Part shown: positions 1 through 20,257 of the stretch, one piece after another
Layout: every line of letters begins with the position of its first letter
Numbering within the stretch: position 1 is the first letter of the stretch
Source of the DNA: Candidatus Sumerlaeota bacterium
GTDB taxonomy: Bacteria > Sumerlaeota > Sumerlaeia > SLMS01 > JAHLLQ01
Direction: 5' to 3'
Length of the DNA stretch: 40,802 nt
Assembly: GCA_036751885.1 (NCBI GenBank)
Contig: DAIOTT010000001.1
Coordinates: forward strand, 1-40,802
Notes under the pieces: model-generated
Databases searched by the model: none
What the model was told of the DNA's origin: nothing
What the model saw: only the letters and a program-made list of their open reading frames with translations
Program-made: the position numbers and the translations under genes

Positions 1-795
1 GCCGGCGATGTAAACGGCGACGGATTAGCGGACTTATTGGTAGGTGCTTCAAGCGCCAACCCAAGCTTAATTCAAAATGCGGGCATTAGTTACGTTGTAT
101 ACGGTAAAACTAATAGCTCCTCTGTGGACTTAGGAAACTTGGGTGAAGGCGGCTTTCAAATTGATGGAAAGGCAGTGAACAACCTCAGCGGGAACAGTGT
201 TTCAGGCGCCGGTGATGTAAATGGCGATGGGTTGGCTGATGTGATTGTGGGCGCACCAAATGCCGCAGCAAACGGGATTGAAAACTCCGGTGAAAGCTAC
301 GTCATTTTCAGCACGGCAACGCCGCCCATTATTGTAACGTACCGAGCCCGGGCCAAAGCCGGCAACGCCCCACGCCAAGCAATCGGCATCTCCGGCGACG
401 GCAGCAATGACTCCACCCCTGACTCACGGGTGTTTATTGACTTCGCTGATGGCAGCAATATTTCCACCCAAACAGTGAAATTGACCCGCAACAACGCATC
501 CATAAATAACTTGCCTGATGCGGCAAATGTAATGTGGGAAATCTCGACAGACCGCATTGATTGGAGCAGTGCTGAAATAACGCTGCGCTACACGGATGCT
601 GAAATTACAGGGCTGAACGAAGCGGAGCTAATGCTGTACACGGCCCCCGACCCAACCGGCCCTTGGGAGCCTGTCACTCAGTTGGTCAAAGAACCTCAAC
701 GCAACCAGCTTAGCGGCACCGTTACTGCCTTTGGCTACTTCGCCCTTAGCACAAGCCAACCAGCACCCAATACCTCGCAATGGATTTTCTACTAA
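1..795 (+). CDS. FG-GAP (integrin-alpha-like) repeat protein, C-terminal part; the 5' end lies outside the window
   Basis: Frame 1 is open from nt 1 (AGDVNGDGLADLLVGASS...), upstream of the track's TTG at 37. There are two copies of the FG-GAP Ca-binding signature GDVNGDGLAD..VGA, each followed by a ..SYVVYG / ..SYVIFS strand. Stop TAA at 793-795. Confidence 0.8.
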   Translation, partial: AGDVNGDGLADLLVGASSANPSLIQNAGISYVVYGKTNSSSVDLGNLGEGGFQIDGKAVNNLSGNSVSGAGDVNGDGLADVIVGAPNAAANGIENSGESYVIFSTATPPIIVTYRARAKAGNAPRQAIGISGDGSNDSTPDSRVFIDFADGSNISTQTVKLTRNNASINNLPDAANVMWEISTDRIDWSSAEITLRYTDAEITGLNEAELMLYTAPDPTGPWEPVTQLVKEPQRNQLSGTVTAFGYFALSTSQPAPNTSQWIFY

Positions 796-850: not shown

Positions 851-3800
851 TTACTTCCAATCGCCGGAAAGGTTTATGCCGGCCCAGTATGTGGGGTGAG
901 GGTATTGGTTTTTCGTGGTGAGTTGCGCTTGGCGCAGAGCTTCCGCGCGGTCCATGGTTTCCATATTACGGTAGAAGTGCTTGATCAGGATGGAGGTTGA
1001 TACATCGTCCACCCGCCAAAGGCTGGAGAGCACTTGCCGCGTTCCTGCGTAAACAAAGCTGCGGTTCAGGCCAATAATTTCATCGCCAGAGGTAATTCGC
1101 CCTAGGCCCGTTTGGCAGGCAGAGAGGGCAACCATATCGGCATTCATGCTTAGGCCAAATATATCTGCCGCCGTAAGTACACCATTGTTCAACTCATCGG
1201 GGGCAAGTTGCAACCCAGAGAGGAGTGGCGCCTCGGGCCGGAACTCGCCGTGCATGGCAAGGTGTATGATTCCGTAGTTGCTGATGTTTTCAACCAACCA
1301 ACTTTTTGTTGCCGCTTCACCCGTGAGAACGGTGGCATCAGGAAACGACCACGTGATTCGTTGGGCTTCCTTCTCTGCCATGGGTAGATTGAACCCATCC
1401 TGCGCCAGCTTGGGATTGCCAATTGCAAGAACCTGATTACTGGTGGTGCGCTTTTTCTCCATGGTATAGCGAAGTACACTTGCGCTTGGGCTAAAGTAAA
1501 TGGCCAAAGAATCCAACAGTAGTGATTCGTTTACGCGAAGCACAGCGAAAGGCATTAGGTGCAGTTCGCGGTGGGGAATGATTGCAAGACGTTTGAAGGG
1601 GGACAGGCTACCCGCTACCGGTTGTAAAAGCTGGCTGGAGAGTGTGCGTTGCAATAGGTTTATATCACCCGCCGTTTGCAGGCGTTCGCGCAAGTTCAGG
1701 ATTTGCGTGCTGAGCGTGGAGCGTGCAATTGGCTGGCGGTAAGCTTGTATGCTTTGTTGCGACACAAGGAAGATGATCAGCTCATTTTCCGTGACATGGT
1801 ACTGCAGCACGGCGGTATCAGAATCAAGAAGGGCTTGAATTTGGGAAACTTGAATGGGCTCCACCGAGACGAACGCGCTTAGCTCTGGATTGCGTGCCCT
1901 AAGGGCTAACAGAAAATCGGCGTACTCCTGCCGCGTGTCGTCAAGTTGCTCGGCAATGCGTTGCTCCAACGTGGGATCATCACCACCCTGCTGGCGTTGA
2001 AGGATTTCAATTCGTGACCGAAGGTTTTCCTCACGCCGTAAATCATCTTCATCAGCACCCTCTAATAAATCCACCTTTTGGTTTCCAAGCAAATCAATAA
2101 AGTTTCTCCCTCGGGATTGTTCGCTCACGGAGTACGCCGCTGGCCAATCTCCTTGATCCATACGCAAAAGCACAAGCTCATCATACAGTACTTGCTTATC
2201 AGCTAAAAAGCCCTCTTGAAATTCTGCAAGCTTAAGGGACGCCCTAAGCGTATCAACAACGTTGATGGCTTGCAGCAAATATTCAATCTGCGATGGAACA
2301 TTCCCCAACGCCTTTTCGCATTGTGACAACCCGTACTGCGCTTGCCAAATTACTTCCGGCAGGGGGACTAAGTTGGCTTGGTTTAGGGCAAAGCCAAACT
2401 GTTGCTGGGCTTCGGCAATATTGTTTTGTTCAACTAAAACACGGCCCAAGGCTAAGTGAACTTTTGCTTGGTTAACCGCATCACCAATACTTTGCGTAAG
2501 AACAAGGGCCTGCCTAAAATCTTGGGCCGCAAGGGACAGGTCACCGGCTTCAAGGTACGTAAGCCCCCGGTTGCGCAAGTTGTAGGCTAAAGCCCAATCG
2601 TTATTCCAGCGGGCATCAATTTCAAAGGCGCGGTTAATATCTTCCAACGCTTGGGTGAAATCTTGATCGCTTCGGTAAACGAGGCTTCGGTTATTCAGGG
2701 TTGAGGCAAGATCTTGCTCAAAGAATTGGTCCTCAGCAAACTCTAAGGCTTGGGTATAAGCTTCAAGTGCTTTATCAAGATCGTTCAGCGCCCAGTAAAT
2801 AAGCCCCTCATAGTTTAATGCAATTAGCTGAAATGTATCGTCGCCAATGCGTTGGGCAAGTTGCTGACCTTGTTCTTGATGGTTGAACGCTTTAAGGTAT
2901 TGGCCCTTTGTCCACTCTAAATAACAGAGTGTTAGCAATGCATCGCACTCGTTTGAAAGAAGGCCTTCGGCGCGGGCTTGTTCCAGTACAGATGCAGCGC
3001 TGTCGCTGGCTTCGGAAATCATGCCAAGGCGTTCCTTCACGCGAACAACATCAAGTGCTGAAAGAAGCTCTAGCTCGCGGTTGCCTAAAACTTGGGCAAG
3101 CCGTTGTGCCTCCTGGTACTCAGTAAGCGCTTGGGCGTAGCGGTTTAGGCGGCGGAGATAAATACGGCCCCTGTCACTGTGGAGTTGATAACGTAGGTCG
3201 CTGGAGATCGACTCGGATTCCAGCAACTCGGCCATAATCCCGAGCGCTTGGTTGACTTGCCCTTGGTTTTCACGCACAATCGCCGCCCGCCGCAACATGT
3301 TGAACGCTTCATCAGAGTCACCAAAGCTGCTGAACAATTCAATTGCCTGTTGGTAGCTGGTCGCCGCTTTTTCCCAGGCGCGAACCTCGTTCGCATCCGA
3401 GGCGTAAAGCCGTAGTTGTGTTGCGCGTTCCAAGGTATTATCTTCCCCCTGAAGCGAAAGCAGCAGTTCCTCGTGAATTGGGAGTGCATCCTTTGCTTGG
3501 CCAAGCTCCCGGTAGATTTGCGCAAGCAAACGACCCGATTCCAACTGTTCATTGAGGGTGCTATTTAGGGCGCGGTGTAGTAAATAAACTCGGCGTAATG
3601 GGCCCAATGCTTCACGAGTTTGTCCCTGATTCATTAGGCGAATCACGCGAGCAAGTTCAGCATCAAGCTCCGAGGCGGCAAGCTCCGGTGCATCTTGCGG
3701 ATTAACCAAGTTGGTAAGCCAAACGGAATCGGGTGTTTCAAAGCGTGCCGTGTTGGCCGTTGCAAGCAATGCGGCAAAGGGACGCGGGTTCCCTGTAACG

Positions 3801-6800
3801 TTTGCATAAGTCCACTCGCGAGGCCCCTGTAACAGCGTCAATTGTGTTTCCAAGGGTTTTTCTGCTAAGCGCCAAAACGTGGCATTTTGCGCTTCCACAT
3901 TTAGGGGTGCATCCACCTGAACAGCATCTGCCGTTGAAAGCGTTTGCAGTAATTGCTGACGCGTGGAATCGTTGCGCCACTCAGCAACTTCATTTGAAAT
4001 GCGCAACGGAGTTTGGCTAAGCGCCAACAACGTAAGGCTTAGGGACGGGGATTCCAGTACATGTTCAATGGGCAATTTCTCCCTCGGATTTAACCTGAAA
4101 TCAGAGTGGTAAACAAGCTCCGCCTTAGGGAGTGAATCCAGCAGCTGTTGCTGTGAAGCGTACACTTTTGGCTCACCCGAAGCATCGAATAAAACAAGGG
4201 TGCTGGGAAGGGAAATGATGAGAAGGGGACGCGAGTTTGAAAGAATGAAATCCTGAAGGGTTGCGGCTGCATCGCCGAAAAACTGGAAGGGCGCAAAGCG
4301 AAGCGCCGTCGGGAAAGCAGAGTTAACCCCTTCCTCAAGGTGGTTTGCCAAAAGCTCCTTAGAGCGCTGTAGGCGTTGGTCTCTTGCCGGAGTAAAGGCA
4401 GAGTCTGCCGGTCGAGATTGCAAGGCTAACCGGGCCTGAAGCACTTGGCGTTTGTATTGGTTGAAGTCGTTCAACCACTCTTGCTCCTGCGGGCTGGTGC
4501 TTTGGTTTTGCCAATCCAAGGTTGAGAATTGCAGTCGGTATTCCGCGTGGCGCAGAATTTCACCGGTGCGCAACAGTTCATCAAAATCCCCTACGGCCGC
4601 ACAGTACTCCATGTAACTGGCAAGAGAAGCTTGCAAAAGGGGAATTGCAGAGAGAAATGCAACTGAATTGCTGGTAGCGTGCGTTGCACCAAGCTGATCA
4701 ACCAAGAGCTTTTGCAGATTGCGAACGTTGCCTGCCTCGGCAGTTGAGGTAATCTGCTGAAGCGTTAACCACCACAGCCAATCATCATACCCTTGCTTGG
4801 TAAAGAAGTCCGTTGATTCAGCCACAACTTCCTCTTGTTGAAAGTTAAACCGATTTGCAATACGCACATTAATGCCGTAGGCAAAAAGCATCCATTGTTT
4901 ATCCTGGGCGGATGAACCCAGTTGGGAGCCAAGCTCCAACACGCGGTTTGCGTGAATGAAAGCGCGTGCGGCGTGGGCAGCAGCGCTCACGGAATCAGCG
5001 CTGTTGGATTGTCGTTCAGCAATCAGGGCCCGCTGCAACAACAGGGACAGGCGCTCGGTTTTCAACTCACCCGAAGCAAGTGCCAGCGTAAAGGAGGGTG
5101 CATCCATGAATCGTTGAATCACCTGATCTAGTTGAACAATAAACGGCGTTTGCTGTTTTGGTTGTTCGCTGAGATTGAAGGGCAATTCTTGTAATTGCGC
5201 ATCAGTTAACGATAAACTTACCTCAGCCACACGCATTAGGAAATGGTATGTAGGATCCAGCAAAATTACCGTACCAACTTCAGATGTGTAGTTGGCATTT
5301 TGAAAACCCTCCACTAAATATTCAAGCGCCTTGATCTTATTTCCCGATCGGTGCTCAATCGTTGCAAGCTCATCTAATGTTTGCATCAGCGCCAAAGAAT
5401 CCTGCGGGGCGCTAACAACACGAGTAGAATTCAATAGGTTGAGTTGATCTTGAAGCGAAGTGCGGGCTTCTTCAGGGGATTCAAATTCTGCTTTCAAACG
5501 AGATAAGATGAGCGTAACAAAACGCTTTTCGTCTTCCTTTGATAGATTCACACGCGCGGTTGATTGATCGCTGGATGACAGCTGTAGCGAAACGGAGAAA
5601 AAGCCTCCGCTTTCCTCCTTCGGAATAACCAATGATTCCTGATTCAGTAAATCCAACGCCTGTTGAAGAACCGTAATCGACTTGCCGGCAATTTGGTAAC
5701 GCTGCACGGTTTTCATTCCTCGGGCTAATTGGAACAAGGCAAACCCCTGATTGCGCAGCGCCCTTGCTTGACCCAATGAGTTTGGGTCTGATGCTTCTGC
5801 AACCCCCTGGAACAGCGTGCTTGCCTTCTCAAAGTTCTGGCGAGACAACTCGGCCAACGCTTGCCGATCAATTAATTCTTGATGCAATGTTTCCGCTTGA
5901 GCTTCATGGATAAAACCTCGTTTCGCCATGATGCTGACTTGCTCGGCCGCAGCGACAAATTGTGTGATTGCCAGCTGTTGTTCGTAAGAACGATAAGCAG
6001 TGACACCGTAGTTGCGGTGAAAGAGAAAAGCAGCTCGGGGGTCGTCAAACGGAAGCCCAAGAATGCTGCGCTCGTTGTAGAATTCAAAAGCCCGGGCCGT
6101 GTTGTCTAAAGCGAATGCCATGTTGCCTGCATTTTGCAACAAACGGGCATAATCCAGCGGGCGTTGCACGGAAGAAAGACCAAGTGCCCGCTGATAATTA
6201 TTCAGGGCTAATACAAATTCCTGAACATCCTTATTTTCTCTTCCCCTTGTTTCATTTATAAACCCGAGTGTTTGATAGTAATAAGGAACAGAACTGTTTG
6301 CAGCAATTGCCTGCTCAATTAGGCGTTTTGTTTTTTTAGATGTTGGCTTCGGATAACTTAAAGCCAACCCGTAGCGATAGGAACCCAACCCTTCATCATC
6401 AGAATTCTTTGCCATGTCACTGTACTCGCGAATGCGCTCGCTGGTAAGTAAGCCAAGGCGATTTTCAGATTCAATTAAACCCCGCCATGCTTCCACAGAA
6501 GTGGGAAGCGATTCAGTCATTGCCACAAACTGGCTGTACGCCAAGCGGTTGTCCCCAAGCCGGAGTGAACGATTTGCGCGGCTCAACGCTTGACGCGAAT
6601 ATTTTTCCTTAGTTCGTTCGTACGCATCGCGTTCTTGCTCCCATTCTTCTAAAGGAATAACCCTCAGAATTTTTTGGTACCGTTCCAACGCCTGTTCAAG
6701 CTCATTGATTCCGCTTTCAATTTCCCCCGCCGCAAGCTGAAGTTGAATTTGGTAATCAAGATCAAGTTCAGGATTTACCTGCACAGATTCCAAGAGTTCA

Positions 6801-8407
6801 TTCGTTGAAGTAATGCGCCCTAATGAAGCAAGAATTTTTGCTTCACGGTAGTAGGAATGAAGAAGATAATACTCCCCCGTGTGAAGGCTTCTGTATTGGC
6901 GGATTGCCGCAAGTTTGGCATCAACAATTGTGGTGTTTTGCCCAACTGAATCGTAGAGCTGTTCCATCAATCGGAATCGCGTAATTGGCAGGTAAGCTTG
7001 ATCTAGATTTACAAGTTCTTCAAATTGGCGAATCCCTTGTTGTTGATCAATCTCAATCAGAAGTGGTATAGAATCCAGCAGCACAATGCTACGCAAAAGC
7101 GAAGGCTGCTCAAGCGTAGAAAGCAACTCTTGCTGAAGCTGAATAGAGGCTTGCCGTTGATTCAACCGCAACAAAACAAGGGCTTTCTCGCGCTGCAAAA
7201 GTTTCACTTCAGTTTGATTATTTAGGTTTGTTGCAAAACTCAAAAATTGGTTCAGTTCATTTAATGAATTTTGTAGAATCGTTGTGCGTTCAATTTCATC
7301 AGCAATACCAACTGCTCGTTCTGCATTTAGAACAGCAGCCCAGCGGTTTAGCGTTCTGCTAAAATCTTCATCAATTGTTGTGTTGATGAGTTGTTTGTAT
7401 CGCTGAAGTTCCTCCAACGCTTGGGCTGATCGGTTGCGCTGACGAAGAAACTCCAGCAAAGAAACAATCGCTGTTTTTGATTCCTCCGAATTTGGCGCTG
7501 CAATGCAGGCGTTGCGTACTTGAGCGGTAAATAGGTACAATTCATTTAGGTTTGGTTCGCGGTTTACAGTTAGCTTGGCAAGTGAAGCTGACAAACTTTT
7601 CTCAGTGACAGGGAAGCTTTTTTTCAGTCGATAAATATCTCGGTTTTCTTCTATTTCAAGGGAGAACACAATTTCATCTGCAGCGTAAGAAACATCCCTC
7701 AAGCCAGGCAACGGGGGAGTAATTTGCCGAATCAAAACGCCGTCTTCCTGTTCCCACAAAGAGGGCCAATCGCCACTACGCTCGCTGATTAGTCCGTCCC
7801 CATTTGTATCATCAAGGTAGAGTATTTGGTAACGCATTGGAAACTCCACCGCCGTTGTATTTCTCGGCAAGTTTAGCATTTCCGTTAGATTGTATTTTTC
7901 AATCGTTTCCTGTGATTCTTGATCCCTGGACTTTATTTGAATTTCAAGTTGATCGTTATTTTTTTTCCAGCTGTAAAGCTCCTCGGTAAATATACGCTTA
8001 CCAAGATTTTTGGGTTCACCATTTGGAAATTTAGCAGCCCAAATATCACTCATAATATCAGACCGTTGCGAAGACCACACAAGGGCATTTCCATCCGGTG
8101 AAAAAGCAGGGGAAGAATCAATTGTAGGGTGCGGATAAAGAAGCGAACGTGTAAATCGCTGAGGATCGTTTAAATCAAGCAGCACTAAATCGCCTTGACC
8201 AGAAGCCTCTGTAACAAAAACAAGCCAACGCCCATCAGGGGAAAGAACAGGGCTGTAATCATCTTCAGGAACCGTGGTAATTCGCTCCAGATTACTAGGG
8301 TACATATTCTCCTGTGCAAACGTTTTTTGAGCAAACGAAGCGACAAACGGAAACGTTGAACAGAGGATTGCAAAAGGGAAACTGGGGCGTTTCATTTTGT
8401 ACTCCAT
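851..8407 (-). CDS. Giant exported multidomain protein: signal peptide, TolB-like PD40 beta-propeller repeats, a very long TPR-like helical-repeat region, and a C-terminal CHAT (caspase-like) protease domain
   Basis: 2,518-aa uninterrupted ORF. The N-terminus MKRPSFPFAILCSTFPFVASFAQ is signal-peptide-like. An alternative ATG at 8395 gives an ATGA overlap with the upstream stop. PD40 motifs: SPVLSPDGRWLVFV and SPAFSPDGNALVWSS. A DTNGDGLI Ca-loop-like motif is present. Many TPR-like units occur (e.g. ALNNYQRALGL, AYTQALEFAE, ALEDINRAFEID). The CHAT core is RLAIIPHRELHLMPFAVL ... IIHLAMHGEF ... VALSACQTG, with the His codon at 1250-1252 and the Cys codon at 1115-1117. Confidence 0.85.
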   Translation of the reverse strand: MEYKMKRPSFPFAILCSTFPFVASFAQKTFAQENMYPSNLERITTVPEDDYSPVLSPDGRWLVFVTEASGQGDLVLLDLNDPQRFTRSLLYPHPTIDSSPAFSPDGNALVWSSQRSDIMSDIWAAKFPNGEPKNLGKRIFTEELYSWKKNNDQLEIQIKSRDQESQETIEKYNLTEMLNLPRNTTAVEFPMRYQILYLDDTNGDGLISERSGDWPSLWEQEDGVLIRQITPPLPGLRDVSYAADEIVFSLEIEENRDIYRLKKSFPVTEKSLSASLAKLTVNREPNLNELYLFTAQVRNACIAAPNSEESKTAIVSLLEFLRQRNRSAQALEELQRYKQLINTTIDEDFSRTLNRWAAVLNAERAVGIADEIERTTILQNSLNELNQFLSFATNLNNQTEVKLLQREKALVLLRLNQRQASIQLQQELLSTLEQPSLLRSIVLLDSIPLLIEIDQQQGIRQFEELVNLDQAYLPITRFRLMEQLYDSVGQNTTIVDAKLAAIRQYRSLHTGEYYLLHSYYREAKILASLGRITSTNELLESVQVNPELDLDYQIQLQLAAGEIESGINELEQALERYQKILRVIPLEEWEQERDAYERTKEKYSRQALSRANRSLRLGDNRLAYSQFVAMTESLPTSVEAWRGLIESENRLGLLTSERIREYSDMAKNSDDEGLGSYRYGLALSYPKPTSKKTKRLIEQAIAANSSVPYYYQTLGFINETRGRENKDVQEFVLALNNYQRALGLSSVQRPLDYARLLQNAGNMAFALDNTARAFEFYNERSILGLPFDDPRAAFLFHRNYGVTAYRSYEQQLAITQFVAAAEQVSIMAKRGFIHEAQAETLHQELIDRQALAELSRQNFEKASTLFQGVAEASDPNSLGQARALRNQGFALFQLARGMKTVQRYQIAGKSITVLQQALDLLNQESLVIPKEESGGFFSVSLQLSSSDQSTARVNLSKEDEKRFVTLILSRLKAEFESPEEARTSLQDQLNLLNSTRVVSAPQDSLALMQTLDELATIEHRSGNKIKALEYLVEGFQNANYTSEVGTVILLDPTYHFLMRVAEVSLSLTDAQLQELPFNLSEQPKQQTPFIVQLDQVIQRFMDAPSFTLALASGELKTERLSLLLQRALIAERQSNSADSVSAAAHAARAFIHANRVLELGSQLGSSAQDKQWMLFAYGINVRIANRFNFQQEEVVAESTDFFTKQGYDDWLWWLTLQQITSTAEAGNVRNLQKLLVDQLGATHATSNSVAFLSAIPLLQASLASYMEYCAAVGDFDELLRTGEILRHAEYRLQFSTLDWQNQSTSPQEQEWLNDFNQYKRQVLQARLALQSRPADSAFTPARDQRLQRSKELLANHLEEGVNSAFPTALRFAPFQFFGDAAATLQDFILSNSRPLLIISLPSTLVLFDASGEPKVYASQQQLLDSLPKAELVYHSDFRLNPREKLPIEHVLESPSLSLTLLALSQTPLRISNEVAEWRNDSTRQQLLQTLSTADAVQVDAPLNVEAQNATFWRLAEKPLETQLTLLQGPREWTYANVTGNPRPFAALLATANTARFETPDSVWLTNLVNPQDAPELAASELDAELARVIRLMNQGQTREALGPLRRVYLLHRALNSTLNEQLESGRLLAQIYRELGQAKDALPIHEELLLSLQGEDNTLERATQLRLYASDANEVRAWEKAATSYQQAIELFSSFGDSDEAFNMLRRAAIVRENQGQVNQALGIMAELLESESISSDLRYQLHSDRGRIYLRRLNRYAQALTEYQEAQRLAQVLGNRELELLSALDVVRVKERLGMISEASDSAASVLEQARAEGLLSNECDALLTLCYLEWTKGQYLKAFNHQEQGQQLAQRIGDDTFQLIALNYEGLIYWALNDLDKALEAYTQALEFAEDQFFEQDLASTLNNRSLVYRSDQDFTQALEDINRAFEIDARWNNDWALAYNLRNRGLTYLEAGDLSLAAQDFRQALVLTQSIGDAVNQAKVHLALGRVLVEQNNIAEAQQQFGFALNQANLVPLPEVIWQAQYGLSQCEKALGNVPSQIEYLLQAINVVDTLRASLKLAEFQEGFLADKQVLYDELVLLRMDQGDWPAAYSVSEQSRGRNFIDLLGNQKVDLLEGADEDDLRREENLRSRIEILQRQQGGDDPTLEQRIAEQLDDTRQEYADFLLALRARNPELSAFVSVEPIQVSQIQALLDSDTAVLQYHVTENELIIFLVSQQSIQAYRQPIARSTLSTQILNLRERLQTAGDINLLQRTLSSQLLQPVAGSLSPFKRLAIIPHRELHLMPFAVLRVNESLLLDSLAIYFSPSASVLRYTMEKKRTTSNQVLAIGNPKLAQDGFNLPMAEKEAQRITWSFPDATVLTGEAATKSWLVENISNYGIIHLAMHGEFRPEAPLLSGLQLAPDELNNGVLTAADIFGLSMNADMVALSACQTGLGRITSGDEIIGLNRSFVYAGTRQVLSSLWRVDDVSTSILIKHFYRNMETMDRAEALRQAQLTTKNQYPHPTYWAGINLSGDWK

Positions 8408-8955
8408 GCGCCGTTACGCGCTTGAATGAAAGAACCTATGGGGGCAGCATCTTGATTGATTGTGGCAAACACCCATTGAATTTCGTCCTCCTGATTTTCT
8501 TGCTGGGTGAAAATAGTTTGCTTCAAGCGATTCAACAAAACGGCTCGGTCGTTATTTTCTTCGTCAATTATTTGCTGCACTTGTTCTTGAGTAAGATTTG
8601 TTTGCGAAAGATTTTGCTCACGTTGAACCACCAATCCATTGGCCGCTTCACCCAAAACATTTGTTCGCAAAAGAGCATTTAAATCGTCGGAGTTGTAGCG
8701 GCGATTCTGCAGAGCTGCAAACACTTGTTGTTGGCTTTCCGTAGTTTCTGGTGGCAGTGTAAGGGATCCATCCGGATCAACTCCACGAACACTGCTGTAA
8801 GAGAGAAGCTCCTTCCCTAGTTCCGAGTAATTCCCCAACACTTGATTTTCAAGTGAAGTTTGCTCGCCAATAACCTTAATATTAAGATTCAACAACGGCC
8901 CGCACCCTTGAAGTACGAGGGAAAATACCAAAATAGTGTAAAGAAATTTATTCAT
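8392..8955 (-). CDS. DUF1318 / YdbL-like periplasmic protein with a lipoprotein-type signal peptide; the N-terminal part may be YnbE-like
   Basis: I prefer the ATG at 8955 (MNKFLYTILVFSLVLQGC, signal peptide plus Cys) over the track's upstream start at 9045, which would overlap the preceding gene by about 100 nt. The C-terminal half (EENNDRAVLLNRLKQ ... GSFIQARNGAWSTK) resembles my recollection of E. coli YdbL (..INAERKASYQQLAK ... GEYVQGINGKWVRK). Its start overlaps the upstream stop (ATGAATAA) and its stop overlaps the downstream start (ATGA). Confidence 0.6.
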   Translation of the reverse strand: MNKFLYTILVFSLVLQGCGPLLNLNIKVIGEQTSLENQVLGNYSELGKELLSYSSVRGVDPDGSLTLPPETTESQQQVFAALQNRRYNSDDLNALLRTNVLGEAANGLVVQREQNLSQTNLTQEQVQQIIDEENNDRAVLLNRLKQTIFTQQENQEDEIQWVFATINQDAAPIGSFIQARNGAWSTK

Positions 8956-11900
8956 TTTCAAGAGCTGCCTTTGCATTAAAGAGTGAGAAAAGTTCATCCA
9001 ACGTTTTTGCCTGAAGCACATCCTGCGCAAGAATGAGTTGAGCATAAAGCGTATTGATCATATCAGGGGAATACAGAACGGCAATTTCAGAGATCGGCTG
9101 ATTTTGCACAACGTAAAACGGAGTAGTAAAACCCCCGCGAACCGTTACATCCGTTCTAAAAGTTACAAGCCCGTAGGAGATTAAAAAAGATGCAGCCGTT
9201 GGAGGAGTGACACGCAAAAGCGTTAACGCGTTTGAAACCGTTTTTAACTCCAGCGCGGTTGTTACAGCTACAATGAGTTTGCGAATGGAATCGGCTTCCA
9301 AATCATACGTAAAGAGTTCTGCATCTAGTTGTTCCACCGGATTTGTTGCATTACGCTTTAACGGCAAACTGTACTTCCCTAATAAATTTATTGTCTCATT
9401 ATTTTCTTTATCTGGATTATTGTAGGCATTTAAATTAAGTCCCACAAGTTGCACATTACCAGACAACGTATTTCTAATAGAGCTTGGGTACAGCGAAGTG
9501 GTAAGGGACAATGAGCCTTGAAGCACATCCGATATAATCAGGGAAAGATCAATTCCCTCTGTAACACCGTTAGCAAGAAAGATTAATTTAGAAAGAACGA
9601 CCGGGCGCGCGGTTGACTCCACCGTTAACTGTTCGATTGTAAACTTGCCCAATGCTTTTGGAGGTTGAAGAGCAAGGGGCTTTGAAATGCCTAAGGCATA
9701 TTCCGGGCTCCAGCTGCCGTTCAGTCCGCGCATGTTGACTAAATCTGGCATGCGCAAATTAACCTCGGAAGCAGTCAACGTTGGGTTTATATATATTCCC
9801 GATGATTCTGAGGTGCGAAATACCACATCAACAGCTGCATCACCCGTCATGGTATAATCTTCCAACTCGTCCTCCAACGCCGCTAAACGCTGAAAGAATG
9901 AAGCCGTTCCCTGCAGTTGTAAATCGTTTATAAAATCGTTCAGGCTGAAGGAATTCATCAGCGTCGTGAAATCTGCATCATCTTGAATTGGAAGAATTGC
10001 AGATCCGGAAGAGGCGAAGGTGCTGCCAATATTTTCAATGGAAAAGTCCGAAAGTTCCCACGCAATTTCGCCGTTGGGCTTCACCGTGCTTGAAGAGAGT
10101 AAGTTGATATTTTCCAAAGGAAATAAATCGGGAATCGTGATCGAATCAATGGTAGAATTTACATCAACTGTCAGCACATCTTCCGAAAGCGATTGGCGAA
10201 AATTAATTCCTGTTTCACTAATGTTCATTCCGTTATAGGCAATATTCGGAAGCGATGCTTGCAGATTTATCCGTGCTTGTTGTGCTTGAAAAAAACTGCT
10301 CAAGGTGGTGGGCAGCACGCCAGCATATTCGCTTTCAAGGGAAAAACTACCCCCTGTGAATTCAACCAAAAAAGGCTGAAGCGGCGCATTTAAAAATTCT
10401 AATGAACTTGATTTTGCGATGAGGGACAGAGACAATAAGTCCCCATAAATAAGATCATTTACCTGCAGAAGAAACTCACTGCCAACCTTTAGCTCCGCTT
10501 GTTCAAGAGTAACACTTTCAGCAAAAATCAACTCTTGCAATTCCAAAGAGGCGGAATTCACGAGGCCCGTTTCGGTTTCCAAATTCTGAACGGAACCAAC
10601 TTGAAGAAGTGTTTGTATCAGTTCACCTTGTTGAATGCTTGAAAGATTTGCCGACAACGAAACATCGAAAATGCCGAAAGTGTTATAATAGATTTCCGGC
10701 ATACTGATACGCAAAGCCCCCAAAGTTGCGGGTACTGCTTCACTTGAATTAAAGAAATACTCCAAGCCTAAATCAGCCCCCAGAACATTCGCTAAATATT
10801 CTTCAGAGCTTAAATCTGGTAGTTCAAGGCTTACATTCCCTCCTCCGCTGGCTGAATACGAGTCAGCCAAATTAAGAGTGAACGTATTCTGAGATTGCAA
10901 AAATGATTCCGGTGAAACGCTAAGCCGTTCCGGGTACAATTGTTCTGGTGCAAATTCTGTTGCTAAGCTCAACGCACTTGCAACGCTCACCAACAAATCA
11001 AAGGACGATTGAGCTTCTTGAACGGTTGATAGATTAAGGGAGCTTGCAAAAAGTAGGTCGTTGTATAATTCAACCGCGGCAGTTATTTTGGGATCAACCG
11101 GATCTGCAACTCCCTGTAAGGTTGCATTTAGTTGAACGGGGTAGAGGACGGAATTATGCTGCGAGCTGGGCAGTAGTGTATGATTGAGGGACGCGAACGA
11201 TTGGTAGGTAGATAAATTCGTTGTGGCGAATAATTCTCCTTCAAACGAAGCTGGAAGATGCTGTTCAAAATCCATTAAATTTTCAGGGATTATAACAAAT
11301 TCCTTCAGCAACCCAAAGCCCTTAAGGGCAAGATCAACATCCTGATCTTCAGCATTTAAATTCACGGATAAAAACGAATGATTGCTCCTAATATCCAAGA
11401 AAACTTTATGGGCATTTATGGTGTTGGTTTGAAATGAAAATTCCACATTTCCCCGAGGGACATTCACGAACGGGTTTTGCAAATCAATCACCGGGAGGCT
11501 TAAGCGCCCGCGGGCGTTCGCGTGATTTTGGGCGTAATCGAATTCAACATATAGATTCGTCCACTCTTCAAGGCAAACTGGCAAAGCAAAAAACTCATCC
11601 TCAATTAGCTTGGCGGTTTTCTGGGTATTTAACTTACCAATTAAACTCCCGTAGATGGTGGGCCCTAAAGCTGAACCATTCACCTGCGGAAGGCTAACTT
11701 CAAAGTAAGGATGCAAAAGTTGAAAATCCTGCACACCATAAGTTTGTTCTGCCATAAAATAGCGTGCAGTGGCAGATTGCTCAACTGCCAGCAACTCCGC
11801 GGGTAGAGAGAATGAATCGTACACAATCCGCTGATCCGCAAACGTGGATTCCGGCGCGGGAGTAATTGAAAAGTCTTGATTGAATTCAAGTACTCCGTCC

Positions 11901-13204
11901 CTGAAAACAATTTGATTGAGGGAAAACTTTACTTCACTTTCGGGAATTAAAACAAGCGGCAGTGGAACCAGCTTTTGCGCAAAGTTTAGTAATTCCAACG
12001 GCTGAAGCGTTATGCTGGTTTGGGCGTTATCAAGGGCAATTTGTGGCTGGGTTGCAAGTTCTTCAGCGGTTGCTTGTAACGTTGCCCAAGGGCTTTGAAA
12101 CTTGAGTTCGCCCGCAACCATTGCTTGTTTTTGCACATTCACTTCTGCGCGGCTGTTGAAGTTCATCGCCGGCAGCAAAACGGATTTATCTGGGGCATTT
12201 GGTACCAAGCGTGTGGAAAACTCAACGCCCTCAACAGCAGCACTAAGCTCAGCAAGCACAACAACAGAATCAAGTTGCTGTACTGAAAGGCTTACGGGTA
12301 TATTCCCCGATTCAATAATTAAGTAGTCCTGTGCTACAAAGGGAGCTGCTAAGGTTTGTAAAATTGGAAGCTCAAAATTTGTGGTCAACTTTGCATTCCG
12401 TTTTTCTGCATCAGCTGCTAAGTGAAAAAATGAAGTGGTGTTTTCCGTTCGGGAAACGTTGAACTCCGCAACTATTTTTTCGACAACCAATTCGCGCTCT
12501 TTGTTCAAGGCTTTGTTGATGTTCCCTGATGCAACCCAAGGGAATTCCTGATCGTTTGCTTGAATACTCCCTACCGCCGCCAGTGTAAGTGCATCCGCTG
12601 GTGTAGTAAGATTCAAATCAACGGAATCTAATACAAAGGCAAGCCGCTGGTTTTTCACACGATCATCATAAACAAATTCCCAATCAACGGCCTTAACACT
12701 GAAAGAATTTACGGGGAGTTTGAACGCCTCCGTTGAGGTTGTGGGCTCGTCATTCGTGCTACTTGGGGGGAGTGAATTGATTAGCGCCTGAAGATTTGTT
12801 TCGCCGTTTTCCAGAATGGTGTAATTCGCTTGAAGCCCAACAACCTCAAGAGGCGGTGGGTTTTGAATACCATTTTGAAAAAACCCGATTATACTAATCG
12901 GGGCTGATGCAGAATCCAAGGCGAGAATTTGCTCGCCCGTAGCATTGTCTTTTACCAACAGCCCCTCAATTGCAAGGGTGGAAAACCACCCCAGTTTAAG
13001 GCGCTGCAATTCAATCGTCAGAGGAAATTGTTTTTCGGCAAAACCAATTCCACGGCTTACAACAAACCGCGACGTTATGATGCTTGGCAAAATGGCGATG
13101 AACAGAATGAGCCCCAAAAGAATACAAAAAAGGCCAAGCAAAAGACGTTTCTTCCACTTAGCCTTGGTAGACTTTTTTTCGGCTATTTCTGGATTTTTTT
13201 CCAT
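8948..13204 (-). CDS. AsmA-family (TamB/YdbH-like) large envelope protein, inner-membrane anchored
   Basis: 1,418-aa ORF with ATG at 13204. Basic N-terminus followed by a single TM (KKRLLLGLFCILLGLILFIAILPSII). Next comes an AsmA-like start (LTIELQRLKLGWFSTLAIEGLLVKD), then more than 1,300 aa of S/T/N/L-rich sequence with alternating beta-strand character and no Cys. It sits immediately upstream of a DUF1318 gene, as ydbH does in E. coli. The family call is by architecture and context, not by a strict motif. Confidence 0.5.
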   Translation of the reverse strand: MEKNPEIAEKKSTKAKWKKRLLLGLFCILLGLILFIAILPSIITSRFVVSRGIGFAEKQFPLTIELQRLKLGWFSTLAIEGLLVKDNATGEQILALDSASAPISIIGFFQNGIQNPPPLEVVGLQANYTILENGETNLQALINSLPPSSTNDEPTTSTEAFKLPVNSFSVKAVDWEFVYDDRVKNQRLAFVLDSVDLNLTTPADALTLAAVGSIQANDQEFPWVASGNINKALNKERELVVEKIVAEFNVSRTENTTSFFHLAADAEKRNAKLTTNFELPILQTLAAPFVAQDYLIIESGNIPVSLSVQQLDSVVVLAELSAAVEGVEFSTRLVPNAPDKSVLLPAMNFNSRAEVNVQKQAMVAGELKFQSPWATLQATAEELATQPQIALDNAQTSITLQPLELLNFAQKLVPLPLVLIPESEVKFSLNQIVFRDGVLEFNQDFSITPAPESTFADQRIVYDSFSLPAELLAVEQSATARYFMAEQTYGVQDFQLLHPYFEVSLPQVNGSALGPTIYGSLIGKLNTQKTAKLIEDEFFALPVCLEEWTNLYVEFDYAQNHANARGRLSLPVIDLQNPFVNVPRGNVEFSFQTNTINAHKVFLDIRSNHSFLSVNLNAEDQDVDLALKGFGLLKEFVIIPENLMDFEQHLPASFEGELFATTNLSTYQSFASLNHTLLPSSQHNSVLYPVQLNATLQGVADPVDPKITAAVELYNDLLFASSLNLSTVQEAQSSFDLLVSVASALSLATEFAPEQLYPERLSVSPESFLQSQNTFTLNLADSYSASGGGNVSLELPDLSSEEYLANVLGADLGLEYFFNSSEAVPATLGALRISMPEIYYNTFGIFDVSLSANLSSIQQGELIQTLLQVGSVQNLETETGLVNSASLELQELIFAESVTLEQAELKVGSEFLLQVNDLIYGDLLSLSLIAKSSSLEFLNAPLQPFLVEFTGGSFSLESEYAGVLPTTLSSFFQAQQARINLQASLPNIAYNGMNISETGINFRQSLSEDVLTVDVNSTIDSITIPDLFPLENINLLSSSTVKPNGEIAWELSDFSIENIGSTFASSGSAILPIQDDADFTTLMNSFSLNDFINDLQLQGTASFFQRLAALEDELEDYTMTGDAAVDVVFRTSESSGIYINPTLTASEVNLRMPDLVNMRGLNGSWSPEYALGISKPLALQPPKALGKFTIEQLTVESTARPVVLSKLIFLANGVTEGIDLSLIISDVLQGSLSLTTSLYPSSIRNTLSGNVQLVGLNLNAYNNPDKENNETINLLGKYSLPLKRNATNPVEQLDAELFTYDLEADSIRKLIVAVTTALELKTVSNALTLLRVTPPTAASFLISYGLVTFRTDVTVRGGFTTPFYVVQNQPISEIAVLYSPDMINTLYAQLILAQDVLQAKTLDELFSLFNAKAALENE

Positions 13205-13231: not shown

Positions 13232-14158
13232 TTAGGGACTCAAACGATTGAGCACATTGGCTTGGTAGCGTGCTTGTTGTTGTACTCCTACACCGACAAA
13301 ATCCTTAAGATCAGTTGCATAAAGAGGTTGCAAATTTCTGATTCGACTTGATGCAGAAGGGTGCGTTGAAAGTAACCCGCCTTGCTGATTAGGAAGGCTG
13401 GCAAGCGTATTCAAAAACCGCAAGTACTCAGCAGGATCGTACCCCGTAAGCGCCGCTAATTGAACACCAACGGAATCAGCCTCGTACTCAAATTTTTGAT
13501 CCAACCCTTTGTTGAACAAAACATCGCTGCCAAAATCTACATCCTGGCTGTACTCCTCAGCGCTTAATGCTTCCAAAGTTTGGTTTGCTGCTTCAAACAA
13601 CCGCGCGCGTTTGTACGTTTGAATCATGTGGCGCTCCGTTACGTGGGCAACTTCGTGCCCAAGCACGGCGGCAAGTTCCGCTTCATTGCTGATTCGCTTC
13701 AGGGCTCCGGTCGTAATAAATAGAAATCCGCCAGGGGCAGCAAACGCGTTGATTGTTTCAGAATCTAGAACGGCAACGGAGAACTGCAAATCCGGACGGC
13801 TGCTTTGTAGCACCACGCTACGAGCAACTAAGTTTACGTAACGTTGTACGGTTTCATCCTGCAGGCGCGGGCCGATTGTTGCGTAAGAGCGCAACGCTAA
13901 GCCTTCACCCAACGTGTATTCCATTTCAGGGGAAACATCGCTTGCTAGGCTTGAAACGGACCCCGCAACATTCCCGTATTGCTTTGCTTTTTCTTCGTCG
14001 CCACTGCCAAGAAGAACGCCCGTTTGTACGATTGTGCCAAGATCAGCGGAGGAAATTCCTGATCCGCCGTTTCCGCCGCAGCTTGCCCCTAAGAACACCA
14101 CGGTTGAAAAAACGGTAAGCACGCCAAGTTGTTGAATTTTACGCATAGAACGATTCAT
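13232..14158 (-). CDS. M48-family zinc metallopeptidase, secreted or lipoprotein
   Basis: Motif NAFAAPGGFLFITTGALKRISNEAELAAVLGHEVAHVTERH contains the HExxH zinc site in typical M48 context. N-terminal signal MRKIQQLGVLTVFSTVVFLGASC. The start ATG shares nt 14158 with the upstream stop (TAATG). Confidence 0.85.
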   Translation of the reverse strand: MNRSMRKIQQLGVLTVFSTVVFLGASCGGNGGSGISSADLGTIVQTGVLLGSGDEEKAKQYGNVAGSVSSLASDVSPEMEYTLGEGLALRSYATIGPRLQDETVQRYVNLVARSVVLQSSRPDLQFSVAVLDSETINAFAAPGGFLFITTGALKRISNEAELAAVLGHEVAHVTERHMIQTYKRARLFEAANQTLEALSAEEYSQDVDFGSDVLFNKGLDQKFEYEADSVGVQLAALTGYDPAEYLRFLNTLASLPNQQGGLLSTHPSASSRIRNLQPLYATDLKDFVGVGVQQQARYQANVLNRLSP

Positions 14159-14637
14159 TACAAACCACCTTCAGCCATAAAGCTTTGAACGTCAGCCGCA
14201 ACAATTTCGTTGGCCAATTCTTGAGTTTTACTGAGGTCTTTCGCCGCCGATTCGGGGATTTCACCGGAATCAATAAGGGTTTGAGCCTGAGGCGCAACAC
14301 CGCGATTCACGGATTGGCTTCTCATGGTAGTGATTTGCCGATCGTCTCGCACTAAACCACCAAGCCCGCCGCTAGAACTTCTTATCGGTGCATCTTGAAC
14401 TTTTACTTTGCTGATGAACCCTTGGGCACCATTGCTTGTGCGCACTTGGTAGAACAACCCTTGTTGTTGAAGCACTGTTAACGGGGTGTTTTGCGGAACC
14501 GTGGCAACAACGGAACCGCCAGAGCCTTGCCGCGAACGTAATTCAGCCTCGGCCGTTTTAACGTAGATAGTTTGCTGTGCCCAGCTTATAGCGGGCAAAA
14601 GTAAAGCAAATAGGGGAATTAAGATGCGTTGTTTCAT
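14158..14637 (-). CDS. Secreted bacterial SH3 (SH3b) domain protein
   Basis: I prefer the ATG at 14637 (MKQRILIPLFALLLPAISWAQQ, a clean signal peptide, with AGGA 11 nt upstream) over the track's TTG at 14673. SH3b-like core: IYVKTAEAELRSRQGSGGSVVATVPQNTPLTVLQQQGLFYQVRTSNGAQGFISKVKV. Confidence 0.65.
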   Translation of the reverse strand: MKQRILIPLFALLLPAISWAQQTIYVKTAEAELRSRQGSGGSVVATVPQNTPLTVLQQQGLFYQVRTSNGAQGFISKVKVQDAPIRSSSGGLGGLVRDDRQITTMRSQSVNRGVAPQAQTLIDSGEIPESAAKDLSKTQELANEIVAADVQSFMAEGGL

Positions 14638-14683
14638 TGTATGTAAATTCCTATTAGAAGAACGATTTAGCAAGTTTGATGAT

Positions 14684-15847
14684 TCAACCGGATGATTTGT
14701 TCCAAGCTTTAAAGATTACACCAGCAATATGACCGCCAAAACCAAAAGACCACTTCAGTATGTGTACAAGGGGTTGGGGTTGTGTCAAACAAGGAAACCG
14801 AAGGTGAGAACATTCCGGCGCGGCCGTAATAAGACCTACGGTTAGTGGTATTTCTTGTCGGTTCAGCATTGAAATCACGGAAACGCTTTCAACGCTGCCG
14901 GCTGCACCCATCAAGTGCCCGGTTGCCCCTTTCAGCGAATGACAATACAGGGAATGCTGATTCCATTTGTTTTGCAAAGATTTAATGGCTGCCGCCTCTG
15001 CGCAATCATTCGCCGGTGTTGCTGTTCCGTGGCAGCTGATTGCCTGAATCAACGGCTTACCGGCTCGCTGCCAAGCCTTCTCGCCCACCGTTGCAATTAC
15101 CTCACCGCTAAGATCAATCCCCACAGGGTGGTAGGCATCCGCTCCCTCTGCCCAGGAAACAATTTCTGCCACAGGCGTTAGCCCAGCTTTCTCGGCGTTT
15201 TCAGGGGTTGTAAGAACTAAAACTGCGGCCCCTTCCCCTGCAACAAACCCGTTATGCCGAACATCAAAGGGGAAAGAACCCTGTTGCGAGTAAGCATTTA
15301 AGTTCAGAAACGAGGCAATATAGGCAGAATGCAATGTTGCCTCGCTGGAACCAGCAACCGCGTAGGCGCATTCACCAGCTTGCACTGAACGTGCGGCCCG
15401 AATGATATTTGCAAGCCCTGTGGCACAAGCCCCAACATAACTCCCCACGGGCCCCTGGGCATTTGTTTCCTGGGCTAAGAAGGTACTAATGGCACAAGCC
15501 CACAGGCTGGGAAAATTTGTGCGTGCTGAACCGGAAATCAACAGCTCCTGAAGAACGCCCCCTTTACTGGTTGCCGCAAAAGCCCCCCGCTCCTGAGGAG
15601 GGATAAAGGCATTCAACGCCTCAAAAACTGAGGCCAGTTCCGCCAAGCAGGGGCGAAGCAGGCTGATTGATCGGTCTTCCCCCGGCACGGTTTGAAAATC
15701 AACCACCCGCGCAACGGGTATACGCTGAAGCCCCTCCATCTGTTCCAAATGAATCCCGCACTTGCCTGCTAGTAATCCCTCTGTGAACAACTCAAATCCC
15801 CTTCCCACCGGGGAAATTACCCCACACCCTGCAATAATAACCCTCAT
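14684..15847 (-). CDS. Beta-ketoacyl-ACP synthase (KAS I/II, FabF/FabB-like)
   Basis: The Cys-His-His triad is in canonical contexts: GACATGLANI (Cys), CHGTATPANDCAE (His), SLKGATGHLMGAAG (His). C-terminal SFGFGGHIAGVIF. ATG at 15847. Confidence 0.85.
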   Translation of the reverse strand: MRVIIAGCGVISPVGRGFELFTEGLLAGKCGIHLEQMEGLQRIPVARVVDFQTVPGEDRSISLLRPCLAELASVFEALNAFIPPQERGAFAATSKGGVLQELLISGSARTNFPSLWACAISTFLAQETNAQGPVGSYVGACATGLANIIRAARSVQAGECAYAVAGSSEATLHSAYIASFLNLNAYSQQGSFPFDVRHNGFVAGEGAAVLVLTTPENAEKAGLTPVAEIVSWAEGADAYHPVGIDLSGEVIATVGEKAWQRAGKPLIQAISCHGTATPANDCAEAAAIKSLQNKWNQHSLYCHSLKGATGHLMGAAGSVESVSVISMLNRQEIPLTVGLITAAPECSHLRFPCLTQPQPLVHILKWSFGFGGHIAGVIFKAWNKSSG

Positions 15848-16233: not shown

Positions 16234-16297
16234 TTTTCTGCAATCACTGCTCTTCCTTAGGTGAGTTTTTTTGAGTATCATCCTGATCAGCCGCGAC

Positions 16298-16906
16298 ATG
16301 AAATCCACCCATAGGGGCTCCTTGGAATTGTTGCGGTTTCACGGTGAATACACCACTCATTTGCCCGAAGGCTTGGTTAGAATTGGGGATCAAATCCCCA
16401 CGCTATTCTTCCCCGATGGCGGTCGCCACTGGGTTGTTACCGAGCCCCTAAAAAATGTGATTGAACGAGAATTAGACGGCGTTGAGTTTGAGCCAGCTTT
16501 TTGTAACCGCTTGATTAAAGACCCCGGCGATTTTCACATGGCGTTGGCCCGGGAACGCCACATGCAGGATGAACCCAACCACGGCATACTAGATTTCTTT
16601 CACGATGAAGATTTGTTCCACAAAATTCGGCCCAATCTGTATTGGCTCTATATTCCCCTGTTCGGTACCGGAACCTTCTACCCAGAAGCAACTCAGAAGA
16701 TTGTGGATGAACGCAAGGAAGCAATTTTTGTGGATGAAAAAGCCTATCTTTCCTTTGTAGCCCCGTTCTTAAAACCCAGCATTGTGGAAAGCTCGCCCTT
16801 ATTTATGATTCACTCCAGCCTTGCAATGGCAAATTGGCTTTATGATTGTATGGAACCTTACATTGATAAACTTCACTACCAAGTAACCACACTGCACGGT
16901 GCATAA
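16298..16906 (+). CDS. Hypothetical cytoplasmic protein
   Basis: Open frame 16271-16906. The track start is TTG and the first ATG is at 16298. The stop lies 4 nt before the next gene's ATG. I recognise no motif. Support is length, coding-like composition and tight packing only. Confidence 0.45.
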   Translation: MKSTHRGSLELLRFHGEYTTHLPEGLVRIGDQIPTLFFPDGGRHWVVTEPLKNVIERELDGVEFEPAFCNRLIKDPGDFHMALARERHMQDEPNHGILDFFHDEDLFHKIRPNLYWLYIPLFGTGTFYPEATQKIVDERKEAIFVDEKAYLSFVAPFLKPSIVESSPLFMIHSSLAMANWLYDCMEPYIDKLHYQVTTLHGA

Positions 16907-16909
16907 AGC

Positions 16910-20205: not shown

Positions 20206-20257
20206 ACACCCCTTCCGCTTGAACCGCCCTCTACCCCACTTTGAAAGTATACCACGC

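Follow-up and report, generated by a model that had tools for sequence, protein, structure and literature searches.

Caspase-fold proteases joined to helical-repeat scaffolds are exemplified by DdvA, separase, and Csx29, site-specific enzymes that are kept inactive until a partner binds. Here we compare these systems with a giant gene from a Candidatus Sumerlaeota bacterium, found on the minus strand of the 40,802-nucleotide stretch of DNA that we analyzed (hereafter the window; contig DAIOTT010000001.1 of assembly GCA_036751885.1, positions 1 to 40,802). The predicted product, which we call the giant, runs from a signal peptide through a PD40 propeller and long TPR-like solenoids to a CHAT domain, and its gene is the last of an operon that also encodes a YdbL-like DUF1318 lipoprotein and a putatively AsmA-like protein. 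We consider it rather probable that the giant is an exported, gated protease functionally tied to this AsmA-like/YdbL-like envelope module. The domain families, and a periplasmic TPR-CHAT protein in the form of DdvA, are already known, and the protein family is present in databases without a name; what appears to be undescribed is the PD40-solenoid-TPR-CHAT giant as a family, together with the almost invariable pairing of its gene with genes for an AsmA-like and a lipidated YdbL-like protein.

The closest point of reference is DdvA of Myxococcus xanthus, a transmembrane anti-sigma factor with a periplasmic TPR-CHAT portion (PDB 8ROT/8RW5), in which the catalytic dyad is held in a resting geometry; activation by a signal has been proposed, as has a function as a self-cleaving site-1 protease (PMC11506125). 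DdvA and the giant share an extracytoplasmic TPR superhelix that leads into a CHAT domain with a His/Cys dyad, as well as a weak sequence match. Unlike the giant, however, DdvA comprises only 991 residues, carries a cytoplasmic zinc anti-sigma domain and a transmembrane helix, partners an extracytoplasmic function (ECF) sigma factor, and controls an island of cyclic-oligonucleotide-based antiphage signaling (CBASS) and CRISPR genes. The giant departs from DdvA in turn through its cleavable-type signal peptide, its PD40 domain, a further solenoid of ~1,100 residues, and a different conserved operon; there is no sigma-factor gene in that operon, and no anti-sigma domain or second transmembrane-like segment in the giant. 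DdvA thus serves as an experimental precedent for an extracytoplasmic TPR-CHAT unit.

Other systems illuminate different parts of the protein. Csx29, the Craspase component of type III-E CRISPR systems, resembles the giant in its TPR and CHAT domains, its fold, its aligned dyad, and the idea of a protease whose site-specific activity is gated allosterically, but is cytoplasmic, of ~700 residues, and bound to Cas7-11/gRAMP; the NCBIfam model for Csx29 (NF041237) scores 40.8 bits on the giant against a cutoff of 300. Separase (peptidase C50) likewise sets a caspase-fold protease behind a very large N-terminal helical solenoid, although it occurs in eukaryotes, is found in the cytoplasm or nucleus, and is under the control of securin, and the Pfam C50 model does not match the giant. 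At the other end of the protein, the comparison is with TolB, which is periplasmic and likewise built on PD40 propeller repeats. TolB models match only residues 38-154 of the giant, and weakly, with 37.1 bits against a cutoff of 343 for TIGR02800 and 29.6 against 405 for NF002183; moreover, the giant is without the TolA-binding N-terminal domain of TolB, and its propeller spans only ~220 residues.

The giant ends in an intact caspase-like (CHAT) protease domain with predicted activity. Pfam PF12770 matches with E=5.2e-62 and 210.3 bits against a cutoff of 24, over profile positions 5-289 of 289, and in the AlphaFold2 model this part adopts a caspase-like alpha/beta fold at a predicted local distance difference test (pLDDT) score of mostly 80-95. 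In a phmmer comparison with solved structures, His2386 and Cys2431 (residue numbering throughout counts from M1, the first ATG) aligned to H585 and C627 of Scalindua Csx29, which form the catalytic dyad of Craspase. Both residues are invariant in 23/23 aligned family members, as are the HGE and SAC(Q/E)(T/S)G motifs around them; a motif scan found the dyad motifs kept in 90/109 representatives, and CHAT, at 53-69% identity, is the best-conserved part of the giant. The same dyad concept is embodied in DdvA by H862/C907 (PMC11506125). When the C-terminal 1,199 residues were searched with Foldseek, DdvA ranked at the top (8RW5/8ROT, E=4e-17), ahead of separase from human and yeast (~1e-15) and Craspase Csx29, each with a Foldseek probability of 1.00.

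We find it very probable, from the features of the N terminus and of its relatives, that the giant is exported to the periplasm. Its leader, MKRPSFPFAILCSTFPFVASFAQKTFAQ, reads as a K/R n-region (K4/K6/R7) followed by a 16-residue uncharged hydrophobic core (F10-F25), with two prolines and one cysteine in the h-region; candidate cleavage sites lie between SFA and QK and between TFA and QE, and both fit the -3/-1 rule. Beyond this leader, no transmembrane-like segment occurs in the giant. A rule-based test assigned signal or lipobox N-termini to 93/109 family representatives (2,400-3,000 residues), whereas 5.1% of 3,937 internal 70-residue segments of the same proteins scored positive; several of the 16/109 negatives are visibly truncated or mis-started gene calls. 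The leaders of orthologs are unrelated in sequence, being either of the Sec type, as in MKRLPLLLTLLLAAPLAAQQ, or lipoboxes such as LLLGC, LLTGC, and VLYGC: across the family the predicted property of export is conserved, while the leader sequence is not. Some orthologs have lipoboxes, yet the window giant itself was rejected as a lipoprotein, its AILC being a poor fit to a lipobox. For each of the remaining operon proteins, the N-terminus shows a signal peptide, a lipobox, or a membrane anchor. These envelope-type partners, a low cysteine content (7 in 2,518 residues), and the DDTNGDG loop described below are all consistent with export, and secretion is common among clan CD cysteine proteases, gingipains and clostripain being examples. 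A preliminary description of this DNA had proposed a classical signal peptide, a proposal indirectly supported by the n- and h-regions, the -3/-1 sites, and the excess of positive N-termini over internal controls. It had also called an exported CHAT protein unusual; export itself is well supported, but it is not without precedent, as the solved structure of the periplasmic TPR-CHAT protein DdvA makes clear (PMC11506125).

The gene is a single uninterrupted open reading frame in both the program-made list and its translation. Translation probably begins at the second ATG (M5, at 8395) rather than at the first (MEYK...), because the second overlaps the stop of the upstream gene as ATGA, where the first would overlap that gene by 16 nucleotides, and because NCBI annotates a near-identical database protein, P0001, as beginning there, at MKRPS. 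The product would then measure ~2,514 residues before removal of the signal peptide. Compared with the window translation, P0001 contains one additional residue, reading SSVEQRPL in place of SSVQRPL at residue ~746 (window position ~6150), and the two proteins of the locus are listed on contigs of 44,389 and 44,383 nucleotides, which suggests two near-identical assemblies or versions. A promoter and terminator scan downstream of the gene returned nothing above chance.

Between leader and protease, the giant is made up largely of repeats. AlphaFold2 was run on two segments, residues 28-1200 and 1320-2518, each with a 23-sequence family alignment, such that residues 1200-1319 lie outside the models; mean pLDDT was 85.7 for the N-terminal and 79.2 for the C-terminal segment. 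Residues ~40-261 are modeled as all-beta, with ~18 strands, and form a small propeller, just two of whose blades can be recognized as PD40 (two significant repeats, Pfam E=3.3e-13). The TolB propeller model matches at E=1.7e-9, below its cutoff, and homologs give Tricorn_N and Tricorn_2nd Pfam matches. Within the propeller lies the loop DDTNGDG (residues 199-205; 7793-7813, minus strand), a DxDxDG motif that is the majority consensus of the family and is of the Ca-binding type seen in FG-GAP and thrombospondin-like repeats. Residues 272-1199 form an unbroken array of helical hairpins, for which the best Foldseek matches are long TPR scaffolds—Ctr9, IFT-A subunits, Ski3, and OGT. The C-terminal model continues with helices to ~1390, then an alpha/beta unit at ~1395-1500 of low confidence and a disordered stretch to ~1570, before a very regular TPR superhelix at 1574-2054 (pLDDT mostly >90) and further helices up to 2177. 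Pfam TPRs (TPR_12/TPR_1/TPR_MalT) are confined to residues 1677-2053 in the window protein, and occur throughout residues ~400-2300 in its relatives.

As modeled, helical repeats total ~1,650-1,750 residues, in an array broken by the insert at ~1395-1570. The preliminary description had put TPR-like repeats at about 1,900 residues: it was correct as to their kind, which AlphaFold2 renders as helical solenoids, but too generous as to their amount. Its other structural claims fared well, in that the protein of 2,518 residues at 851-8407 corresponds to one uninterrupted frame (with the start probably at M5), the PD40 propeller is recovered by both Pfam and the all-beta model, and the catalytic His and Cys fall exactly on the codons it had named, 1250-1252 and 1115-1117, within a Pfam CHAT match whose dyad is invariant in the family alignment. 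Its suggestion of a regulated platform rather than a simple hydrolase fits the modeled closeness of the giant to the ligand-gated proteases DdvA, separase, and Csx29.

The giant is not a one-off, but a member of a large family that is already in databases and uncharacterized. A word-indexed search returned 32 relatives, and a HMMER scan of query residues 28-1200 against 1.84 billion cluster representatives gave 785 matches at E<=1e-10; the best 150 of these 785 include >100 proteins (50%-identity clusters) of 2,450-2,950 residues that match the solenoid core. This core, conserved and specific to the family, spans residues ~600-1040, and the matches of representatives center on query residues ~530-1010. 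Where relatives are named in databases, it is only as "CHAT domain-containing protein" or "tetratricopeptide repeat protein". The window itself belongs to a metagenome-assembled genome of the Sumerlaeia (Sumerlaeota); relatives are found in further Sumerlaeia, in Kiritimatiellia and Victivallales, in Desulfatiglandales and Desulfobacteraceae, in strain NaphS2 (locus L020), in a Desulfovibrio metagenome-assembled genome, and in Planctomycetota. A search for CHAT-only homologs added CHAT-domain fragments, mostly on short contig fragments, from Nitrospinaceae, Nitrospira, Geobacteraceae, and Verrucomicrobiota.

In a sister subfamily (P0010, P0015-P0019, P0021), another CHAT-like domain lies inside the protein, for example at residues ~1251-1747 of P0016. 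This domain matches the C-terminal CHAT at an hhalign probability of 99.8% but has lost both catalytic residues, and a dyad-less copy ahead of an active CHAT recalls the pseudo-protease domain of separase. The insert at ~1395-1570 of the window protein occupies the same alignment position, which offers a positional hint only of a link between the two. As a candidate degenerate CHAT domain, the insert region (~1385-1660) was rejected: hhalign gave <1% against both the family CHAT and the inner module of the sister subfamily, leaving positional correspondence as the sole resemblance.

The most informative feature is the company that the gene keeps, a point that the preliminary description had overlooked. 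The giant gene closes a tight minus-strand series, in the order SH3b, M48, 1,418-residue protein, DUF1318, giant. The DUF1318 stop and the giant start overlap by 4 nucleotides, the gene for the 1,418-residue protein and the DUF1318 start by 8, and the SH3b stop overlaps the M48 start in TAATG; as judged from the overlapping stop and start codons, the last three genes are translationally coupled. The DUF1318 protein scores 31.4 bits with PF07027 against a cutoff of 27, and its C-terminal domain matches E. coli YdbL at an hhalign probability of 91.6%. DUF1318 proteins of the module (window, L002, L003, L007, L009-L020) all have lipoboxes (conserved in 12 orthologs) and share a conserved N-terminal extension of ~70-90 residues with the pattern ...V(D/N)V.VV(S/G)E(K/R)TALE.QVLG(S/T)Y...SVRGVD. 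The 1,418-residue protein has P0180 as its sole close homolog (28% identity, 99% coverage), which carries DUF748, and it matches the corresponding L002 protein with BLASTP E=9e-16 and its positional homologs at an hhalign probability of 95.9%. The M48 protein is matched by BepA and LoiP models below their cutoffs.

This arrangement recurs well beyond the window. A DUF1318 gene lies directly upstream of the giant gene in 17/18 distinct loci, the window counted and the denominator being the distinct loci with usable upstream sequence (window, L002, L003, L006, L007, L009, L010, L012, L013, L016, L018, L019, L020, L030-L033), and the adjacency spans Sumerlaeota, Kiritimatiellia/Victivallales, and Desulfobacterota; for loci retrieved with the short CHAT alignment, coverage upstream of the giant gene ends at ~2.5 kb. 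Upstream of DUF1318, in nearly all loci, stands a gene for an N-terminally anchored protein of 1,000-1,475 residues, in which N-terminal Pfam matches to DUF748, AsmA, and/or YhdP were found at L002, L007, L030, L031, and L033. M48 and/or SH3 genes are near the module in 6 loci (window, L002, L003, L030, L031, L033). Locus L031 has the same five-gene order as the window, and the SH3b position is shared by L002 and L031; among loci of the Desulfobacterota type, L003 encodes an M48-SH3 fusion of 417 residues downstream of the giant gene (18847-20100), and L033 has its M48 gene downstream as well (18702-21026), preceded by two SH3 genes. The pairing of M48 with SH3 is thus conserved while its position varies. 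Adjacency over at least three phyla, with overlapping codons, is hard to explain without a functional link. Full-text literature searches linking DUF1318 or AsmA-like proteins with CHAT returned nothing relevant.

Table. Features of the giant gene, its product, and its operon (all coordinates are window positions)
Feature	Position	Strand	Residues or detail	Basis
PD40-TPR-CHAT giant gene	851..8407	-	2,518 codons from first ATG	Open reading frame list and translation
Sec-type signal peptide (predicted)	8315..8395	-	5 to 26 or 31	Sequence reading, rule-based heuristic, family conservation
PD40-type beta-propeller-like domain	7625..8290	-	~40-261	Pfam PD40 x2; AlphaFold2 all-beta
First TPR-like alpha-solenoid	4238..7594	-	~272-1390	AlphaFold2 hairpins, Foldseek, Pfam TPR on homologs
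Alpha/beta and disordered insert	3698..4225	-	~1395-1570	AlphaFold2 at low-to-moderate confidence, positional mapping
C-terminal TPR superhelix and linker helices	1877..3688	-	~1574-2177	Pfam TPR_12/TPR_1/TPR_MalT, AlphaFold2
CHAT caspase-like protease domain	860..1648	-	2254-2516; structural module from ~2198	Pfam PF12770
Catalytic His2386 codon (CAC)	1250..1252	-	2386	Codon check; aligns to Csx29 H585
Catalytic Cys2431 codon (TGC)	1115..1117	-	2431	Codon check; aligns to Csx29 C627
DUF1318 (YdbL-like) lipoprotein gene	8392..8955	-	Probable start MNKF..LQGC	PF07027, hhalign, lipobox
AsmA-like/DUF748 protein gene (inferred)	8948..13204	-	1,418 residues; N-terminal transmembrane anchor	Homology to positional homologs
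M48 zinc metalloprotease gene	13232..14158	-	Lipoprotein-like N-terminus; HEVAH at 13643-13657	PF01435 E=1.6e-29
Small SH3b protein gene	14158..14673	-	Signal-like N-terminus; probable start MKQR at 14637	PF08239 E=1.4e-8

The module finds its best-studied analog in the ydbH-ynbE-ydbL operon of E. coli. There, YdbH, an AsmA-like protein anchored in the inner membrane, joins with YnbE, a lipoprotein of the outer membrane, in a bridge between the two membranes that has been implicated in phospholipid transport; YdbL, a DUF1318 protein, binds YnbE and controls assembly of the bridge, and an excess of YdbL is lethal when YdbH-YnbE is the only remaining bridge (PMC11126948, PMC13464000). In vitro, YdbL is broken down by DegP, a protease of the periplasm (PMC13464000). 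The two arrangements have in common a gene for a large inner-membrane-anchored protein, AsmA-like in E. coli and putatively so in the module, preceding a DUF1318 gene, and the DUF1318 domain itself. They differ in that the module has no ynbE, that its DUF1318 protein is lipidated and extended, and that its putatively AsmA-like protein matches the N-termini of DUF748/AsmA families rather than YdbH; the E. coli operon, for its part, has no CHAT or M48 gene. The N-terminal extension of DUF1318 was considered as a fused YnbE and set aside, as it gave no Pfam match and hhalign aligned the lipobox only. The DUF1318 lipoproteins might nevertheless combine a YnbE-like anchor with YdbL-like roles, their similarity to YnbE being the lipobox alone.

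On the reading we lean toward, the giant would be a Sec-exported periplasmic scaffold protease, encoded last in a conserved envelope operon, whose TPR-CHAT unit is held inactive as in DdvA, separase, and Csx29. Binding of a partner or signal at the propeller or solenoid would convert it into a site-specific protease, the partner or substrate probably being encoded in the same operon, either by the AsmA-like/YdbL-like module or by the M48/SH3 pair, and the ensuing proteolysis may control assembly or turnover of a bridge and hence outer-membrane homeostasis. A bolder version, tentative and on present evidence rather unlikely, is that a separase-like, partner-gated periplasmic cysteine protease cuts a component of an AsmA-like intermembrane bridge for lipid transport, such as the YdbL-like lipoprotein or the bridge terminus, and in this way licenses, remodels, or dismantles the bridge. 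To the same bolder version belongs the similarly speculative idea that the five genes—SH3b, M48, AsmA-like, lipidated YdbL-like, and giant—encode a hitherto undescribed envelope machine.

Quite different accounts of the protein deserve consideration, of which the nearest at hand would make it a DdvA-type periplasmic sensor of danger or phage, where self-cleavage or cleavage of a partner triggers a transcriptional or defense response. TPR-CHAT proteases are generally signal-gated, and DdvA, the best structural match, is both periplasmic and a proposed self-cleaving site-1 protease (PMC11506125). We nevertheless judge a sensor improbable: the signal peptide leads directly into PD40 with neither a cytoplasmic anti-sigma domain nor a transmembrane helix, the conserved operon is without ECF sigma, CBASS, or CRISPR genes, and the conserved partners are of envelope-biogenesis types. 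PADLOC found only a generic TPR match in the window, no cas genes were found in the operon or the window, and elsewhere the window holds chromosomal housekeeping genes (RecA, RsmB, Psd, PBP4-like) rather than a defense island. A cytoplasmic protein, or one tethered facing the cytoplasm, in which the N-terminal hydrophobic stretch is no export signal, is still harder to credit, and we give it very little chance. The prolines and cysteine of the h-region and the 16 relatives that fail the heuristic might be cited in its favor, but several of those failures stem from faulty gene calls, the positive charges precede the hydrophobic core and favor an N-in orientation, and relatives show clear lipoboxes or AXA sites on otherwise unrelated N-termini; furthermore, all operon partners are envelope proteins, and a PD40 domain bearing a Ca-type loop is usual for proteins outside the cytoplasm.

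If the giant is exported, it could still be something other than a gated regulator. With ~85% of its length given over to repeat scaffold, and with a dyad-less CHAT-like domain in the sister subfamily as evidence that non-catalytic CHAT exists in the family, it might be mainly a structural periplasmic scaffold whose CHAT domain serves for binding and has at most slight catalytic activity. We find this decidedly doubtful, since the dyad and its motifs are invariant in the aligned members and kept in most representatives, and CHAT is the best-conserved part of the protein. We are just as skeptical of a broad-specificity degradative protease, exported for nutrition or bulk turnover and adjacent to the AsmA-like and DUF1318 genes for no mechanistic reason. 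Gingipains and clostripain, as secreted members of clan CD, are degradative, and propellers of the PD40/Tricorn/DPP-IV type, to which the Pfam matches on homologs belong, gate substrates in bulk peptidases; but the gene order is shared by at least three phyla and its start and stop codons overlap, and both the solenoid of about 1,700 residues and the closest relatives in structure suggest cleavage that is regulated and site-specific.

A gated protease tied to the envelope module therefore remains the account we favor, although several observations weigh against it. The relationship of the 1,418-residue protein to AsmA-like/DUF748 proteins is one that we infer transitively and from N-terminal matches only: the window protein has no direct Pfam match, and as a candidate YdbH ortholog it was rejected at an hhalign probability of 0.1%. 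No ynbE-like gene is present in the module, there is no gene between those for the AsmA-like protein and DUF1318, and the proposed link to lipid transport is drawn by analogy with E. coli. Synteny, for its part, argues for functional linkage without pointing to a substrate, and one Planctomycetota genome (L005/L017) encodes the giant without these neighbors. The signal-peptide test, finally, was a crude rule-based heuristic rather than a trained predictor.

The prospect is of interest since AsmA-like bridges (YhdP, TamB, YdbH) are the current best candidates for the phospholipid route to the outer membrane. To our knowledge, YdbL is the only known regulator of the E. coli YdbH-YnbE bridge, and its level is apparently set by proteolysis. 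The coupling of the giant to YdbL-like and AsmA-like genes in several phyla thus yields a testable hypothesis, namely that bridges are under dedicated proteolytic control; if true, outer-membrane lipid supply would be so controlled in several non-model diderm phyla. In essence, this would widen CHAT- and separase-like protease biology from cytoplasmic defense and cell-cycle roles to the periplasm, and would point to an undescribed role of proteolysis in cell-envelope upkeep. Should the link amount only to scaffolding or general proteolysis, the finding reduces to annotation of a large uncharacterized family.

Beyond the operon, a FabF-like beta-ketoacyl-ACP synthase gene (14684-15847, minus strand; below equivalog cutoffs) lies 10 nucleotides upstream of the SH3 gene and may share the operon transcript; it is not conserved beside the module in L002 or L031. 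At the other end, a 252-residue open reading frame with a TTG start (37-795, plus strand) converges on the 3' end of the giant gene and shows one FG-GAP repeat match and no NCBIfam match. Divergent from the operon, positions 16271-21727 on the plus strand hold open reading frames of 211 and 779 residues without Pfam matches, a polysaccharide deacetylase gene, and a gene for a PBP4-type (S13) D-Ala-D-Ala carboxypeptidase, together forming a further cell-wall-related neighborhood.

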